Notes under the pieces: generated by a model
Seen by the model: only the letters and a program-made list of their open reading frames with translations
What the model was told of the DNA's origin: nothing
The model's database searches: none
Part shown: positions 35,595-42,569 of the stretch, piece by piece
How positions within the stretch are numbered: the first letter of the stretch is position 1
Layout of the letters: the number at the start of each line of letters is the position of its first letter
Source of the DNA: Patescibacteria group bacterium
GTDB taxonomy: Bacteria; Patescibacteriota; Minisyncoccia; Ryanbacterales; GWA2-47-10b
Length of the DNA stretch: 64,000 bases
Assembly: GCA_038064855.1 (NCBI GenBank)
Contig: JBBTSE010000002.1
Coordinates: 72,815-136,814 of the forward strand
Reading direction: 5' to 3'
Translations under genes and position numbers: made by a program

Positions 35595-36692
35595 ATGTTC
35601 CGTACGCTCAAAGCGATCGGACTGCTCGCGGGCATGATTATCGGTGCTGGTATGTTTGCCCTACCGTATACCATTGTGCGTGCGGGTATTGGTTGGTCGC
35701 TTGTTCATGCCAGTATTGTCCTGGTGCTGGTTACGCTCACGCACGCGCTGTACGCAGGTGTTATTTTAAAAGACCGCAGACACGCGCGTCTCCCTGGGTA
35801 CGCGCGCGAGTATCTGGGCGAGAGTGGTTTTTGGATAGCGCTCATTTCACGGTTAGGGGCGTATTGGGGGTTTTTACTCGCGTACGGTATTATCATTGGC
35901 GATTTTTTTGCGCACATCATTCCGTTGTCTGAGACAACGCTCGCTATCACTTTTTTTATTCTTGTTTCGCCACTTATTCTTTTTCGCCTCTCGCGCATCG
36001 GTACGATCAATTTTGTGCTTACGCTTCCCGAAGTGTTTTTGCCACTCATTTTCTTTTTCATATGGTGGCCGCAGTTTGATTTTTCAGCAGTTTCATTTGG
36101 AGGTCATGGCGATTGGTTCCTACCCTACGGCATTTTTCTTTTCGCACTTTCTGGTGCATCAGTGATACCAGAGGTTATTGACACGCTCGGCACCTCGGCG
36201 CATAAAAAAATATTTCCCGTGATCATCGCTGGTAGTGTGATTGCGATATTAATTTATGCCGCGTTTAGTTTGACGATTATCGGGCTTGCGGGTGGCGTGC
36301 CTTCGCATGATTCACTCTCAGTCCTTGCCGTGAGCATTGGTCACCGTGCGTACATCGTAGGGACATTGCTCGGGCTTCTTGCTGTCATCACTTCATACAT
36401 AGCACTCGGACTTGAGTTGAAGTATACCTTTGAATATGATCTCGGGCGTTCGTCGTATGTTGCGTGGGCGCTCACCGCATTTATGCCTCTCGCGATATAT
36501 CTTGCGGGTGTCAGAAGTTTCATTTTACTCATCGATATTATTGGTGCAGTCGGAGTTGGCGTTGAGGGAGTTATTATTGCGCTTCTCGCGCGTCGCGTGC
36601 TTGGTACCCAATGGATTATCGCAGGCGGTATTGCACTCGCACTTGCGGCCGGTGCCGCCTTTGAATTGATACGCACTACAGGAGTGCTATGA
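35595..36692 (+). CDS. Amino-acid permease-like transporter (about 11 TM, HAAAP-like)
   Basis: GAGMFALPY N-terminal motif and multi-TM architecture. Confidence 0.6.
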   Translation: MFRTLKAIGLLAGMIIGAGMFALPYTIVRAGIGWSLVHASIVLVLVTLTHALYAGVILKDRRHARLPGYAREYLGESGFWIALISRLGAYWGFLLAYGIIIGDFFAHIIPLSETTLAITFFILVSPLILFRLSRIGTINFVLTLPEVFLPLIFFFIWWPQFDFSAVSFGGHGDWFLPYGIFLFALSGASVIPEVIDTLGTSAHKKIFPVIIAGSVIAILIYAAFSLTIIGLAGGVPSHDSLSVLAVSIGHRAYIVGTLLGLLAVITSYIALGLELKYTFEYDLGRSSYVAWALTAFMPLAIYLAGVRSFILLIDIIGAVGVGVEGVIIALLARRVLGTQWIIAGGIALALAAGAAFELIRTTGVL

Positions 36693-37315
36693 CCAAAAAA
36701 GAATTGCTCGCGGACCTCGAGCAAGAAATGATAAAAGATACTACACTCCCGCTACAGGAAGCTCGCTTGGTTTTTGGTGAGGGCAACGAGGACGCCGAGG
36801 TTTTATTTATCGGCGAGGCACCCGGTTTTCACGAAGATCGGCTCGGCCGCCCGTTTGTTGGCAGGGGAGGCGAGCTTCTTACTGAATGTATCGGGAGCAT
36901 CGGTTGGTACCGAGAACAGGTATATATTACAAACATCGTAAAACGCAGACCACCAGAAAATAGAGATCCATTATCTGAAGAGATCGAGGCATACAAACCA
37001 TATCTCGCGCGTCAGATTGAAATTATAGGCCCGCGCATTATTGTACCGCTCGGCAGGTTTGCTATGAATTATTTTTTGCCTGACGCGAAAATTTCTCGTG
37101 ACCAAGGAAAAATATTTGTTGTCGGCAAGTACAAGGTGATGCCCATGTTTCATCCGGCGGCGGCGCTGCGCGGTACGACCGTGCTCAATCAATTTAAAGA
37201 AACATTTACAAAACTTCCTATGATCGTATCGGGCGAGGTTGAGGTAATAAAACCAGAAGTTACTCAAACAAAAAAATCTTCCGAAGAAGAATCGTCTCAA
37301 GTCTCTCTTTTCTAG
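36689..37315 (+). CDS. Uracil-DNA glycosylase family 4
   Basis: LFIGEAPG...GRPFVG...HPAAALR motifs of family 4 UDG. Confidence 0.85.
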   Translation: MTKKELLADLEQEMIKDTTLPLQEARLVFGEGNEDAEVLFIGEAPGFHEDRLGRPFVGRGGELLTECIGSIGWYREQVYITNIVKRRPPENRDPLSEEIEAYKPYLARQIEIIGPRIIVPLGRFAMNYFLPDAKISRDQGKIFVVGKYKVMPMFHPAAALRGTTVLNQFKETFTKLPMIVSGEVEVIKPEVTQTKKSSEEESSQVSLF

Positions 37316-37420
37316 CCAGCTCAAAAAAGCCTTAAAAATAGAGGGAAAGGGGGGACATTGACATATTAGTTTTTATATAGTATAATGCAGAAAGATCTTT
37401 AAATACTTACTTGCGAACTC

Positions 37421-37468
37421 TGCCACAGCAGAAAGCGCCTTATTCTTAGGACCTTTTCTGCTGTGGCA
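37421..37468 (+). promoter_or_regulatory. Long stem-loop (14-bp stem) upstream of the DGR target gene
   Basis: TGCCACAGCAGAAA...18-nt loop...TTTCTGCTGTGGCA. Confidence 0.4.
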
Positions 37469-37548
37469 AAGCCGACAGGCGGTAATGCCAGCCCGTGTTG
37501 GGCAACAGCGTTAATCTAACTGGCGAAAACCGAAAAGGAGAAAACGCC

Positions 37549-38169
37549 ATGGACCGTCAGACTGGAAAGCTTATCTCACGTATCGCGGAGAATCTCCCCG
37601 ACATGTCGTCGGACATCATGCAGGGCTGGATTGAGAACCCGCGGGCACTTCAGAAGTTCCTCGCGAGCCTCAGCCCACCTGAGACATCACCCGAGTTCCA
37701 AACCTGGAAGACCATCAAGCTCGGCACGGGCCTTAAGACCGCGGACGATTTCCGTCGAGTACTCCGTGACAGCTGCCGCATCGGCGACGGGGCTTCGGAC
37801 ATTCTCGGCAAGCCCGCCTTCACGGTGTGCGACACCGAGATGGAGCTCGATCTCGTTCGCCCCTCGGTGGCCGAGCTCGGCTTCAAGGATGGCGCCACCT
37901 TCAAGGACATCTGCGAGCGGGGTCTCGAGTACGGACTCAAGCTCTGTCCCGCAGAAGTCGGCCCCCAGCTCCGTCTCCAGTACAGGGACCAGCCGTTGGG
38001 TGAGTGGCTCATCATCGCCATGAAGGCCATCCGCTACTCGGCCGGCGACCTCAGCGTGTTCAGCGTGGAACGCTATGACAACGGGCTGTGGCTCAGCGGC
38101 TACGATGGCAGCCCTGATTACTTTTGGTTCAGCCTCGACCGTTTCGTGTTCGTTCGTCCTCGCAAGTAG
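37549..38169 (+). CDS. DGR target (variable) protein; the C-terminal ~44 codons are the variable repeat
   Basis: GC-rich ORF with AAGGAG 9 nt upstream of ATG 37549 and no signal peptide. The last 134 bp pair with the TR, and the VR ends 2 codons before the stop. Confidence 0.8.
   Translation: MDRQTGKLISRIAENLPDMSSDIMQGWIENPRALQKFLASLSPPETSPEFQTWKTIKLGTGLKTADDFRRVLRDSCRIGDGASDILGKPAFTVCDTEMELDLVRPSVAELGFKDGATFKDICERGLEYGLKLCPAEVGPQLRLQYRDQPLGEWLIIAMKAIRYSAGDLSVFSVERYDNGLWLSGYDGSPDYFWFSLDRFVFVRPRK
38031..38163 (+). repeat. DGR variable repeat (VR)
   Basis: Aligns over ~133 bp to 38532-38664. All but one of ~18 mismatches fall where the other copy has A, so this copy is the variable one. Confidence 0.85.
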
Positions 38170-38256
38170 TCCTCGGCGCTGGGAGCCTTGGTCTCTGACC
38201 TTGGAGCCTTGGTCCTTGGAGAAAATCATCAACGTTGGGAGATAACGCTAAGCTCC

Positions 38257-38296
38257 AGCCCCATATCTATCGTAGATATGGGGCTCTATTTTTATG
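38257..38296 (+). terminator. Rho-independent terminator / hairpin downstream of VR
   Basis: AGCCCCATATCTA-tcg-TAGATATGGGGCT followed by CTATTTTTAT. Confidence 0.65.
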
Positions 38297-38531
38297 CTAA
38301 AATAATTCTTGGCAGTAGGTGAATATGCGAGAGACCAAGGTTTCTTGCTACCGAACCCAGTATCCTTGCGCCGAGTGTATCCACGACCATGGTTTTGGGT
38401 AGGGTGGTGCATGAGAACTCTCAAAAAATGAAGATACTTGGTATTGCGTGCTAGGGCATTGAAGATGTCGAATACGATACAGCCCCGAGAGTATTCAAGG
38501 GGCAGTGGCACAGATGGCGCGCTTTACGTCT

Positions 38532-38664
38532 CCGCAACTCGGCCGGCAACCTCAACGTGTTCAGCGTGGAACACAATGACAACGGGCTGTGGCTCAACAG
38601 CAACAATGGCAACCCTGACAACTTTTGGAACAGCAACAACCGTTTCGTGTTCGTTCGTCCTCGC
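38532..38664 (+). repeat. DGR template repeat (TR)
   Basis: Non-coding copy with a stop upstream and no start. It carries AAC at every VR-variable codon position and a 24-nt adenine-free 3' segment identical to the VR. Confidence 0.85.
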
Positions 38665-38672
38665 AACTCTCT

Positions 38673-39059
38673 TCATTTCTCCCTCGCCTTTGGTAGGGAG
38701 TTTTGCTTGCCCTGAGGTTGCTCAAGAGATTTTGTAAGCTGCCCGTTCCATCCTCCGAGCATCTTGCCGATTTCATCTATTTTTACCGAAAGCGCGGTGT
38801 ATTTTTTGTTATCAAGAGATTTCGTTTCCCACAAAATCATAAGCAGTATCTTGAGCGTATCTGTTTTGCGTATCGCAAGACGAACATAGGGTCTTTTTTC
38901 CTCTCGTGCAAGGAAGCTTGCACTTGCAATCGCTTCGATACTTTCTACAAAGAGATTATCGATCCTTTGGCCAAGAGAATGTCGGTGAAGTTTTGGTAAC
39001 GCTTGGTAGTATTGATACCACAGCAAATATGTATTTTTTAGCTTCTGTAAAATTGGCAA
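38673..39059 (-). CDS. avd: Avd-like accessory variability determinant (four-helix-bundle / 23S rRNA IVS protein family)
   Basis: LPKLHRHSLGQRID...EAIA...EKRPYVRLAIRKTDTLKILLMILWE...KIDEIGKMLGGW matches the four-helix-bundle family and bAvd-like C-terminal (E)IG(K/R)xLGxW. TTG start. Opposite strand to TR and RT. Confidence 0.7.
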   Translation of the reverse strand: MPILQKLKNTYLLWYQYYQALPKLHRHSLGQRIDNLFVESIEAIASASFLAREEKRPYVRLAIRKTDTLKILLMILWETKSLDNKKYTALSVKIDEIGKMLGGWNGQLTKSLEQPQGKQNSLPKAREK

Positions 39060-39096
39060 AACCCGTTGGGGGGGGGCTTACCTGGTTAGTATTTTT

Positions 39097-40101
39097 ATGA
39101 AAAGGCAGTTCACTCATACCTATAATGATATCATCTCTCTCGAAAATCTTCTTGAGGCGTGGAGGGAGTTTATCAATGGAAAACGCGGGCGCATTGATGT
39201 CCAGTTGTTTGAGCGCGATTTAATGAAAAACATTATCGCGCTTCATATAGATCTTGTAGGTAAGACTTACAAACATTCATCTTACTACGCATTTAACATC
39301 TCAGATCCCAAACCAAGAAATATACACAAAGCGAGTGTCCGAGATAGATTACTGCATCATGCGTTATACAGAAAACTATACCCATTTTTCGATAGGACTT
39401 TTATAGACGATTCATATTCGTGCAGACTGGGTAAGGGAACGCACAAAGCGATGAATAGATTCCGCTCTTTTGCGCAAAAAACATCAAAAAATTATACCAA
39501 AACAGTTTGGGTTCTGAAGTGTGATATACGGAAGTTCTTTGCCTCAATAGATCAAGAGGCTCTCATTAAGGTTATCGAGAGTTATGTGCCAGACAAAGAT
39601 ATTATTTTGCTTATCTCCGAAGTTGTTGGTAGCTTTCACTCAACGCAAACTGGTGTCGGGCTGCCTCTTGGTAATCTCACAAGCCAGCTTCTCGTAAATA
39701 TTTATATGAACGAGTTTGACCAGTTTATGAAACATAAGCTTAAAGCAAAATATTATATTCGCTACGCCGATGATTTTGTTATTTTTTCTCAAGACAAAAA
39801 ATTGCTTGAAAGTATGATGTTACAAATTCAAAGTTTTCTTTGGGAGCGGCTACGATTGCAACTCCACCCCGATAAGGTATCGATACGCACGGTGGCCTCC
39901 GGCGTTGATTTTCTTGGGTGGGTGTATTTTCCAGATCATCGAGTGTTACGAACGGTTACAAAAAAGAGGATGTTTCGCAACATTGGTATAAGCCAAGGCA
40001 AAAAAGAAACGGTACAGTCGTATCTAGGAACGATACGTCATGGCAATAGCCAGAAGCTTAAAGGCAAAATTGAAGGTTTGATAAATAAAATTTCAGTATA
40101 A
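39097..40101 (+). CDS. DGR reverse transcriptase
   Basis: RT motifs: LLEAWREF N-terminus, GLPLGNLTSQLLVNIYMNEFD (LGxxxSQ, DGR hallmark) and YIRYADDFVIF (YxDD). Confidence 0.88.
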   Translation: MKRQFTHTYNDIISLENLLEAWREFINGKRGRIDVQLFERDLMKNIIALHIDLVGKTYKHSSYYAFNISDPKPRNIHKASVRDRLLHHALYRKLYPFFDRTFIDDSYSCRLGKGTHKAMNRFRSFAQKTSKNYTKTVWVLKCDIRKFFASIDQEALIKVIESYVPDKDIILLISEVVGSFHSTQTGVGLPLGNLTSQLLVNIYMNEFDQFMKHKLKAKYYIRYADDFVIFSQDKKLLESMMLQIQSFLWERLRLQLHPDKVSIRTVASGVDFLGWVYFPDHRVLRTVTKKRMFRNIGISQGKKETVQSYLGTIRHGNSQKLKGKIEGLINKISV

Positions 40102-40368
40102 AAAAGTTTGGGCCTGCACGCGTGATGCGGGCAGGCCATTGTGCGAGAGAGAATTGTGGAAGGTGCGGTGAGCAGGGGAACTGCAGGGAAGGGGGAGGTG
40201 TGTAGGTGACGCATGGGCGTCAGTGCCGGTGGTGGCCATTACGCTGACCTCGCTCTTCTCTGAATTTCGATGCTCTTAGGATCTGCCTTAAGTATAGAGT
40301 GTAAAAAGTTTTTATGATACCGTTCTCTGTGGAAAACTTTTTCCTGCGCTATACTATCCATATACGCT

Positions 40369-42096
40369 ATGAACAATAAGGATATTTCAGATACACTGTT
40401 TGCTATCGCCGAGTATTTTACGATATTTAATGAGCCGTTTAAGGCGCGCGCGTATGAAAAAGTGGCAGAGACGCTTTCAAGCTTCGAGAGTGATATTCGC
40501 GAACTTTATAAAAATGGCGGATGCAAAGCGCTCGAAGAAATCCCAGGTATCGGCAAGGGAATTGCACAAACAATTGAAGAATATATCAAGACTAGTCGTG
40601 TGCGCGAGCTCGACGCTATGCGCAAAAAAATGCCGGTCAATATGGAAGAGCTGCGCAGTATTGAAGGTATCGGCCCCAAGGCAATAAAAACACTTTATGA
40701 GAAATTAAAAGTAAAAGATGTAGCAAGCTTAAAGAAGGCAGCGCTCGCAGGCAAGATTAGTAAGCTTGAAAAGTTTGGCCTCAAGTCTGAACAAAAGATT
40801 TTAAAAGGCATCGAGTTTTTTGAATCATCACATGGGAGGTTTTTGTTGGGCGAGGCGTTGCCTATCGCACGACGTATCGCGGGTGACTTACGCAAAGTGA
40901 AGGGCGTATCGCGCGTGGAGATTGCGGGATCGATCAGGCGATGGCGCGAGACATCAGGTGATATTGATATCTTGGTAGAGGCGACAAATGCTGACGCGGT
41001 GATGAGCATGTTTGTATCGCGCGAAGATATTGCGCATGTCATCGCACACGGCGAGACAAAAAGTTCAGCGCGCATAAAGGACGGTATTGATGTCGATGTG
41101 CGTGTACTACCCAAAAAATCTTTTGGTGCGGCACTTATTTATTTTACGGGTTCGAAAGATCATAATGTTTTGCTTAGGTCCTTGGCGCTGAAGAAAAAAT
41201 TGAAACTCAACGAATACGGTTTATATCGTGGTACGAAAATAATCGCGGGAGCTACAGAAGAGGAAGTATACAAAGCGCTCGGTGTCTTTATGCCACCACC
41301 CGAACTACGCGAAGGAAAAGATGAGCTCGAAAAAAAATACGGCGGGGTTGTAGATTTTACAGATTTGTGCGGAGATTTTCAAACACAGACTGATTGGACC
41401 GATGGTGCCGATTCTTTAGAGGCGATGGTGCGAGAAGCAAAACGATTGGGTCATGAATACATCGCGATCACGGATCACACCAAGAGTCTCGCGATGACGG
41501 GCGGATCTGATGAAAAAAAATTGCGTAAACAAATACGAGAGATTGGCACGCTCAATAAAAAAATTTCCGGCATCACGATATTGAGTGGTGCAGAGGTAAA
41601 TATTATGCGCGATGGCACGCTTGATATTTCTGACGAAGTTTTATCAGAGCTTGATATCGTGGGTGCTGCTGTTCACTCGCATTTTAATTTGTCAGCAGAG
41701 GAGCAGACCGAGCGCATCATGCGTGCGATGTCCAGCCCGCATGTCGATATTCTTTTTCATCCGACGGGACGCGTTCTCAAAAAAAGAGATCCATATGCAA
41801 TTGATATTGATCGCATCATCGCGCATGCAGTCTCAACTGGCACGGTACTCGAGATTGATGCACATCCGTGGCGACTTGATTTGAAAGATGATCATATTAA
41901 ACGCGCGGTAGATGCGGGCGCGATGTTTAGTATTGATACGGACGCACACTCTCTTGCAGAACTCTCATATTTGGAGTATGGTATAGGACAAGCGCGACGC
42001 GCGGGTCTTCCCAAAAATCGTGTTCTCAATACGCTTGCATTGCCAGCGTTACAAAAATTTTTGGCGACCCCAAAACAAAAGCGTCATCTCTTATGA
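40369..42096 (+). CDS. DNA polymerase X family with C-terminal PHP domain
   Basis: N-terminal Pol-beta-like HhH/fingers (IPGIGKGIAQTIEE) and C-terminal PHP (ITDHT...). 575 aa. Confidence 0.88.
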   Translation: MNNKDISDTLFAIAEYFTIFNEPFKARAYEKVAETLSSFESDIRELYKNGGCKALEEIPGIGKGIAQTIEEYIKTSRVRELDAMRKKMPVNMEELRSIEGIGPKAIKTLYEKLKVKDVASLKKAALAGKISKLEKFGLKSEQKILKGIEFFESSHGRFLLGEALPIARRIAGDLRKVKGVSRVEIAGSIRRWRETSGDIDILVEATNADAVMSMFVSREDIAHVIAHGETKSSARIKDGIDVDVRVLPKKSFGAALIYFTGSKDHNVLLRSLALKKKLKLNEYGLYRGTKIIAGATEEEVYKALGVFMPPPELREGKDELEKKYGGVVDFTDLCGDFQTQTDWTDGADSLEAMVREAKRLGHEYIAITDHTKSLAMTGGSDEKKLRKQIREIGTLNKKISGITILSGAEVNIMRDGTLDISDEVLSELDIVGAAVHSHFNLSAEEQTERIMRAMSSPHVDILFHPTGRVLKKRDPYAIDIDRIIAHAVSTGTVLEIDAHPWRLDLKDDHIKRAVDAGAMFSIDTDAHSLAELSYLEYGIGQARRAGLPKNRVLNTLALPALQKFLATPKQKRHLL

Positions 42097-42569
42097 CTGA
42101 AAAAAAAATAATAGTAGAGCGATCTGCGGGAGCTATCATATTCCGGCGGCAGGGTGGGCGCGTTTGGTATGTGCTTCTTCAGTATGCGACGCGCAATCAT
42201 TGGACCTTTCCGCGCGGGCGACTCGAAGAAGGTGAGCGACCCATTGATGCGGCGCGCCGAGAGATCGAAGAGGAGACAGGCATCTCGCGTGTAAAATTTA
42301 TCCCCGGATACAAAGAAACGATTCACTTTCACTACCAGTGGCCACCCAAAACCGAAGGGGCCGAGCAACGGCTCAAGTTTATCACCTTCTATTTGGGTGA
42401 AGTATTTGGCCGCACTATCAAAATATCGGAAGAGCACAAGAGCTTTGTGTGGGCGCCGTTTGAAAAAGCTATGAAAATCATCAAACATAAGAATAGCAGG
42501 GAGCTGCTCAAGAAAGCTCATATGAAAATTATTCGCATGGACGTAAAAAAGCCACCTTTGGTATCATAA
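42093..42569 (+). CDS. NUDIX hydrolase
   Basis: Nudix box GRLEEGERPIDAARREIEEETGI. Confidence 0.85.
   Translation: MTEKKIIVERSAGAIIFRRQGGRVWYVLLQYATRNHWTFPRGRLEEGERPIDAARREIEEETGISRVKFIPGYKETIHFHYQWPPKTEGAEQRLKFITFYLGEVFGRTIKISEEHKSFVWAPFEKAMKIIKHKNSRELLKKAHMKIIRMDVKKPPLVS

Follow-up and report, generated by a model that had tools for sequence, protein, structure and literature searches.

The window, by which we mean the whole stretch of 64,000 nucleotides analysed here, contains a complete diversity-generating retroelement (DGR) composed of a target gene that carries the variable repeat (VR), a template repeat (TR), an avd gene encoded on the minus strand, and a reverse transcriptase (RT) gene. 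The cassette is chromosomal and is flanked by a gene of the UDG superfamily (36689-37315) and a PolX-PHP DNA polymerase gene (40369-42096), with a NUDIX gene (42093-42569) next to the latter. The target gene (37549-38169, plus strand) starts at an ATG at 37549, a GTG at 37495 being a possible alternative start upstream, and the VR (38030-38165, plus strand) makes up its C-terminal 45 codons. The TR (38531-38666, plus strand) is a 136-nt direct repeat of the VR at an offset of 501 nt, and the two copies align without gaps and with 17 mismatches. Since 16 of these 17 differences fall on adenines of the downstream copy, we identify that copy as the TR and the upstream one as the VR. The sole non-adenine difference is a C-to-T change (C 38619 in the TR, T 38118 in the VR) that adjoins a mutated adenine. 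No Pfam or NCBIfam family matched the target protein, for which comparison with the PDB yielded only a weak match, to a designed beta-propeller. The avd gene (bAvd-like; 38673-39059, minus strand) was recognized by PF22296 (E 2e-12) and by NF033474 (DivGenRetAVD; E 2e-18, which falls below the curated cut-off of that family) and is convergent on the TR. It is separated by only 37 nt from the start of the RT gene (39097-40101, plus strand; RVT_1, E 2e-25). GC content is 56-65% over the target gene (37450-38200), 37-45% in the RT/avd part, and 40-54% in the neighbouring genes. The 5' leader of the target gene carries a perfect sigma-70 consensus promoter (TTGACA-17-TATAAT, 37358-37386) followed by a long hairpin of ~25 bp (37410-37479; fold z-score -3.8).

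An RT search restricted to one genome per species recovered 324 relatives, of which we kept the best 80 (64-72% identity), nearly all of them from Patescibacteria MAGs and all of them adjoining the same cassette. In 62 of these best 80 relatives we detected a VR/TR pair whose differences are adenine-specific, and the layout VR, ~350 nt, TR, ~420 nt, RT is common to 63 of 81 sources. As the initial annotation had proposed, we compared the 3' boundaries of the related VR/TR pairs; in the 62 loci available for this comparison, the boundary is conserved.

[quoted passage not shown] The initial annotation had described it as 24 nt long; it is indeed devoid of adenine, and its length is 25 nt because one more C precedes. 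As adenine makes up 32% of the TR outside this run, the chance of such a run there is ~0.68^25, roughly 6e-5. The last base common to both copies is 38165 and the first discriminating base is G38166 (C in the TR), the stop codon of the target gene, TAG, occupying 38167-38169. The abrupt divergence reported earlier is real: after CGCAA (38161-38165) the VR continues with GTAGTCCTCGG and the TR with CTCTCTTCATTTCTCC, so that beyond this point the two share only a T at +2 in the window and their flanks are then unrelated, while a few relatives keep ~10 of 13 VR/TR matches past the boundary. An adenine-free run of 10-27 nt lies at or near the shared 3' end in all 63 VR/TR pairs. In the 46 loci that we could anchor on the conserved TR flank, adenines account for 0.8% of the bases between -3 and -10 and for 3% between -11 and -20, compared with 25-35% further upstream. 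Changes in the VR affect the two terminal adenines in just 6 of 82 cases (7%), but 50-64% (~55%) of the adenines in the TR body. The boundary motif itself, TCGCAA/GT (38160-38167, plus strand; the slash marks the boundary), is nearly invariant, the VR logo giving C, G, C, A, and A at 1.0 each, followed by G and T at 0.9. The locus therefore possesses an adenine-free segment at the VR 3' end that is identical in the TR and that, on comparative evidence, marks the 3' limit of A-to-N mutagenesis, whereas the window has no segment of ~21 bp partly mismatched to IMH*. The IMH-like boundary claimed in the initial annotation consequently stands as a conserved limit of mutagenesis, with IMH and IMH* identical in this system. 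From these alignments, we consider the adenine-free block and the divergence point to be a genuine, conserved IMH-like boundary.

Past the boundary, and on the VR side, lies an array of six units of 7-8 nt (38171-38220, plus strand): CCTCGG at 38171, CCTTGG at 38186, 38199, 38207, and 38214, and CTCTG at 38193, the first of them starting 6 nt past the VR boundary. The four CCTTGG copies and the duplicated 11-nt repeat already noticed at this site are far above chance expectation. On the plus strand, the hexamer occurs four times in 34 nt, compared with 34 occurrences on both strands of the entire 64 kb, and GAGCCTTGGTC is found at 38183 and 38204 for an expected number of 0.01. The relatives carry at the same site 4-6 units of the form CYTTNG (RRNC-CTT-[T/G/A]-G) with a period of 7-8 nt, and the spacing between units peaks at 7 and 8 nt. 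After the VR of these relatives, CCTTGG was counted 40 times versus 1.4 expected and CTTTG 80 times versus 8 expected. In 30 of 62 loci, the VR is followed by a cluster of at least four units within 60 nt; elsewhere in 1.66 Mb there are only 27 such clusters, several of which also stand after a VR, in second or truncated cassettes. The array is degenerate (two units or fewer in 12 of 60 loci, with a copy number ranging from 0 to 7), and close relatives share its motif cores but differ in the spacers. Counted from the boundary, its first unit starts between +5 and +8 or at +14 or +15 (sd 6), whereas its distance to the downstream RNA start is far more variable (sd 23); because of this phasing, we tie the array to the VR junction. 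The same figures led us to reject the idea that the array regulates the TR RNA promoter. Judging from the aligned loci, the CCTTGG run represents, in local form, a conserved CYTTNG array specific to this lineage, which we did not find described in the literature searched.

Two further observations concern arrays outside the main set of cassettes. One element (found in both L017 and L018; 7943-10701 in the latter) is a second DGR with the classical layout, namely target (with a GYVRCVR end), avd, TR, and RT, and its VR is followed by T-rich TTCTTTG-like (CTTTG) repeats and then by a GC hairpin. This hints that VR-side repeats may perhaps extend beyond one lineage. In another relative (L034, 10200-10400), a second array, terminator, promoter, and start of the 5' domain lie ~4 kb downstream of the first cassette, and this second copy is best described as a tandem second DGR.

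What the array does can be approached from its position. It is the only conserved feature that separates the VR flank from the TR flank, and for this reason we rank first the reading in which it is a recognition element. Our best guess from the sequence is thus that it acts as a VR-side discriminator letting the DGR tell VR from TR, most likely by offering several copies of a putative binding site to a protein belonging to the DGR particle or to the host; one possibility is that each unit binds one subunit of a pentameric Avd. This reading draws on position and conservation, and second in rank comes one in which the array has nothing to do with retrohoming, being either a 3'-UTR element of the target mRNA (involved in stability or processing, or serving as a platform for RNA-binding proteins) or a by-product of replication slippage at a non-coding site that tolerates it. 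The array lies between stop codon and terminator, so that it would be transcribed with the target gene; in some frames the target ORF even extends a few codons into it, and its copy number varies from none to seven. Array regions also fold somewhat better than shuffled sequences on average (mean z -2.2), a value partly driven by extra GC hairpins in some loci, but the array of the window shows no folding tendency (z +0.6). Moreover, the array is phased to the VR/TR boundary and not to the stop codon, which lies anywhere from +1 to +32, it is almost absent after other genes in the 1.66 Mb, and its motif cores are retained in close relatives while the intervening spacers change. We therefore regard a role unrelated to retrohoming as rather unlikely, while giving it real weight. 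A conserved RNA or DNA secondary structure formed by the array was also considered and rejected, given that no consistent fold emerged and that the z-score in the window is positive, as given above.

Downstream of the array, the perfect 13-bp hairpin that had been pointed out earlier (38257-38285) is confirmed: it has a 3-nt loop, is followed by CTATTTTTAT, and lies far beyond chance. It starts 91 nt past the VR, its stem is 46% GC, and its loop is TCG. With its T-tract (38289-38293) it forms a predicted intrinsic terminator of the target gene (38257-38293, plus strand), since it combines a stable stem-loop with a T-tract directly after it, downstream of the stop codon. In a promoter/terminator scan, the CTATTTTTAT tail led to a terminator-like classification, and terminator-like scores of at least 22 were obtained in 77% of loci compared with 2% of control segments. 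A T-tract hairpin occupies the same interval in nearly all relatives, with unrelated stem sequences and at a variable distance from the VR (43-103 nt between the 10th and 90th percentiles, range 0-146, median 61). In the window, the hairpin abuts an extended -10 promoter.

The initial annotation had seen in this hairpin a target-recognition signal of the Bordetella type, and it could be argued that it is the counterpart of the BPP-1 hairpin/cruciform, promoting cDNA integration at the VR 3' end, the CCTTGG run then being incidental. Inverted repeats downstream of the VR are needed for efficient homing both in BPP-1 and in its reconstitution in E. coli, where a kanR-repair target was used (PMC12875486), and the hairpin of the window is perfect, far beyond chance, and has a counterpart downstream of the VR in nearly all relatives. 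However, the BPP-1 hairpin is an 8-bp GC hairpin located 4 bp past the VR, whatever lies beyond +24 is dispensable, and spacer insertions progressively reduce function (PMC3240598), whereas here the structure starts 91 nt away, is 46% GC with a TCG loop and a T-tract, has a promoter abutting it, and in relatives lies 0-146 nt from the VR with a sequence that is not conserved. No hairpin with a stem of at least 6 bp starts within 30 nt of the VR in the window, which likewise has no GC-rich inverted repeat within a few bp downstream of the IMH; a GC hairpin starting within 30 nt of the VR exists in only 8 of 62 relatives, the window not being among them. Because no more than a few bp may separate the BPP-1 hairpin from the VR, an ordinary intrinsic terminator of the target gene is much the better reading of the predicted structure, and we give the homing role claimed for this hairpin a low probability. 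In principle, cruciform extrusion of the terminator is conceivable as well. Short GC tetraloop hairpins right after the VR, as in BPP-1, do occur in a few relatives (L066 at +4, L078 at +3, and L057 at +12), besides or in place of the array.

The boundary itself could be questioned in a different manner, by supposing that the adenine-free block merely follows from the coding of conserved scaffold residues and plays no role as nucleic acid. A peptide written in adenine-free codons can contain only F, L, S, P, C, W, R, G, V, and A, all of them typical of scaffolds, and shielding the scaffold from mutagenesis is known TR logic. Against this, the boundary is read in three frames across loci (CGC AAG TAG, GCA AGT TAG, and CAA GTY AGT), so that the same YCGCAAGT nucleotides end unrelated C-terminal peptides (RK*, AS*, or PQVS), the A at -2, a silent third position in the frame-2 loci, is nonetheless A in 16 of 16, and a block of 10-27 nt is present in all 63 pairs. 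Because they are conserved across three frames, we interpret boundary and block as a nucleic-acid signal and not a by-product of coding. This contradicts the purely coding explanation, which the initial annotation had itself raised against its reading and which we now consider very improbable.

Immediately downstream of the terminator, an extended -10 promoter element for the TR RNA (TGCTAAAAT, 38295-38303, plus strand) predicts a transcription start near the GG at 38311-38312, and TGNTANNNT is found 7-8 nt before GGYAGTAGG in 32 of 41 loci. It precedes a strongly conserved, structured 5' domain of ~220 nt (38308-38534, plus strand), for which covariation and covariance-model matches provide the evidence: 37 of its 53 predicted pairs show compensatory changes. 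The domain comprises two similar bulged hairpins of ~9-10 bp with YAMG tetraloops (38327-38348 and ~38378-38401); ACTTGG (38436-38441) is invariant, and a stem of 12 bp is completed immediately upstream of the TR. Trained on 29 loci, a covariance model detected exactly one copy per locus in 43 further loci, always ending at the TR, and matched the window at 38308-38534 with 220 bits. Apart from a chance miRNA-like match to the hairpin at 37410-37479, no Rfam family was found for 37300-40300 at E <= 1.

The conserved TR 3' flank (38667-38704, plus strand) stands where the VR has its VR-side flank and consists of CTCTCTTCATTTCTCC, a hairpin (38679-38700), and TTTT; across loci, the sequence past CGCAA reads CTCTCTTCATTTCTCTCC, hairpin, GGAGAGTTTTGTTT, and is highly conserved. 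The avd stop codon lies within this flank, and part of the conservation could come from the overlapping avd C-terminus. A TR transcript running beyond the post-TR hairpin would be antisense to avd. Pairing is possible between TCTTCATTT of the TR flank (38670-38678) and AAATGAAGA of the 5' domain (38426-38434). Among the loci compared, the corresponding duplex AAAUGAAGA/UCUUCAUUU is paired in 90% of cells and 5 of its 9 pairs show double changes, although a local 4-bp hairpin fits the TR-flank data equally well; we retain this duplex between sequences upstream and downstream of the TR as a suggestion. TTGCGA, a cis-primer candidate complementary to CGCAA, occurs downstream of the TR in some loci, inconsistently and in a region that also encodes the Avd tail. 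Taken together, the promoter, the 5' domain, and the hairpin with U-tract after the TR suggest a free-standing TR RNA of ~400 nt, although that last hairpin might be an attenuator rather than the RNA 3' end.

The 5' domain also invites the proposal that the array pairs with the TR RNA and thereby docks it on the VR flank. In the window, CCTTGGTCTCT in the array (38186-38196) and AGAGACCAAGG in the first hairpin (38330-38340) are perfect complements, folding of either RNA or DNA places this 11-nt match in a long-range stem, and YYAAGG, the sequence complementary to CCTTRR, is frequent at the hairpin tips of relatives. We nevertheless reject this proposal as largely refuted and give it hardly any credence, since the longest match between array and 5' domain is equal for cognate and non-cognate pairs (mean 6.82 in both), only the window exceeds 9 nt (its 11-nt match is unique among the 57 loci compared), and the tips consist of YAMG tetraloops (4 nt) with covarying closing pairs, the tip variants (ACGG, ATGG) not tracking those of the array.

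We conclude, with a probability of about 0.72, that the region represents the 3' cis-acting end of a chromosomal Patescibacteria DGR target, combining the adenine-free block, the array, the terminator, and the promoter for the TR RNA. For the ends of the transcripts, the site of cDNA initiation and integration, and the role of the array, we infer the following scheme. The block ending in CGCAA would serve as a fixed homology anchor, because a cDNA copied from a TR segment without adenine is always identical to the VR there. Information transfer would stop within this block, which would explain why the two adenines that follow it are not mutagenised. The first base by which VR and TR could then be distinguished would be the next one, G in the VR and C or A in the TR, and the array of 4-6 units, present on the VR side only, would act as the discriminator in place of the proximal GC hairpin of BPP-1. 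Further downstream, the 13-bp hairpin and its T-tract would end transcription of the target gene, and the extended -10 element right after this terminator would start a separate RNA of ~400 nt containing, in this order, the covarying 220-nt 5' scaffold, the TR, the conserved 3' flank, and the hairpin with U-tract. A more specific version, which we put forward only tentatively, is that the phased array of ~5 units next to CGCAA/G is the docking site of an RT-Avd-RNA complex that uses no VR-proximal cruciform and whose RNA is a free-standing ncRNA, the scaffold that wraps the enzyme having moved to the 5' side of the TR.

DGRs are most abundant in candidate-phyla bacteria. To our knowledge, how the cDNA of a DGR finds and enters its target is unresolved even for the one well-studied phage element, and we know of almost nothing on DGR homing in candidate-phyla bacteria. 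The locus described here and its 60-odd relatives provide precise, conserved, and testable cis elements, namely an invariant junction, an array confined to the VR side, a terminator/promoter pair, and a new structured RNA, which depart from the phage paradigm and define what must be transplanted in order to retarget such a DGR. They also show that a hairpin after the VR is not automatically a homing signal. What appears to be new, on present comparisons, is the VR-side repeat array and an RNA 5' domain without an Rfam family, within an otherwise known DGR system.

Compared with the IMH/IMH* of BPP-1 (Guo et al. 2011, PMC3240598), the boundary described here likewise lies at the VR 3' end with a copy at the TR 3' end, starts with an adenine-free segment identical in both copies, and forms the 3' limit of A-to-N changes. 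It differs in that its block is composed of G, C, and T, with 60% GC over 25 nt, whereas that of BPP-1 is GC-only and 14 nt long, and in that it is not accompanied by a 21-bp segment with few mismatches. In this respect, it matches the cases with IMH identical to IMH* described by Wu et al. (2018, PMC5758913), in which recognition must extend further downstream. Like the BPP-1 hairpin/cruciform, the hairpin is an inverted repeat found past the VR and confined to the target side. By contrast, it lies 91 nt away instead of 4 bp, is followed by a T-tract and then a promoter, varies in position among relatives, and has a 13-bp stem (46% GC) and a 3-nt loop where BPP-1 has an 8-bp GC stem and a tetraloop. 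The array, for its part, recalls the (G/U)AG repeats bound by TRAP or the GGA repeats of CsrB in having 5-6-nt cores at short regular spacing, with variable spacers and copy number. Its motif, CYTTNG, is different, and we draw this parallel as an analogy and not as a claim of membership.

As for the RNA, Trichodesmium erythraeum offers a precedent for the organization predicted here, its TR being expressed as a separate ncRNA with a start site of its own (Pfreundt et al. 2014, PMC4143802). There it was shown experimentally, in an unrelated DGR lineage for which neither a 5' scaffold nor a VR-side array has been described. The BPP-1 DGR RNA, which comprises the avd 3' end, the TR, and the Spacer (Handa et al., bioRxiv 10.1101/2023.10.23.563531), is organized differently: the large scaffold, here of ~220 nt with two stem-loops, lies upstream of the TR and not downstream, avd lies here on the strand opposite to the TR, and the RNA of our locus has its own apparent promoter, a U-tract hairpin ~13 nt after the TR, and no evident fold-back primer segment between the TR and the duplex strand. 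Nevertheless, in both systems the TR is embedded in a structured RNA, the bulged stem-loops of ~9 bp with tetraloops found here resemble the Avd-binding stem-loop of BPP-1, and the candidate duplex between TR-upstream and TR-downstream sequences recalls the cPRT Stop duplex of the phage RNA.
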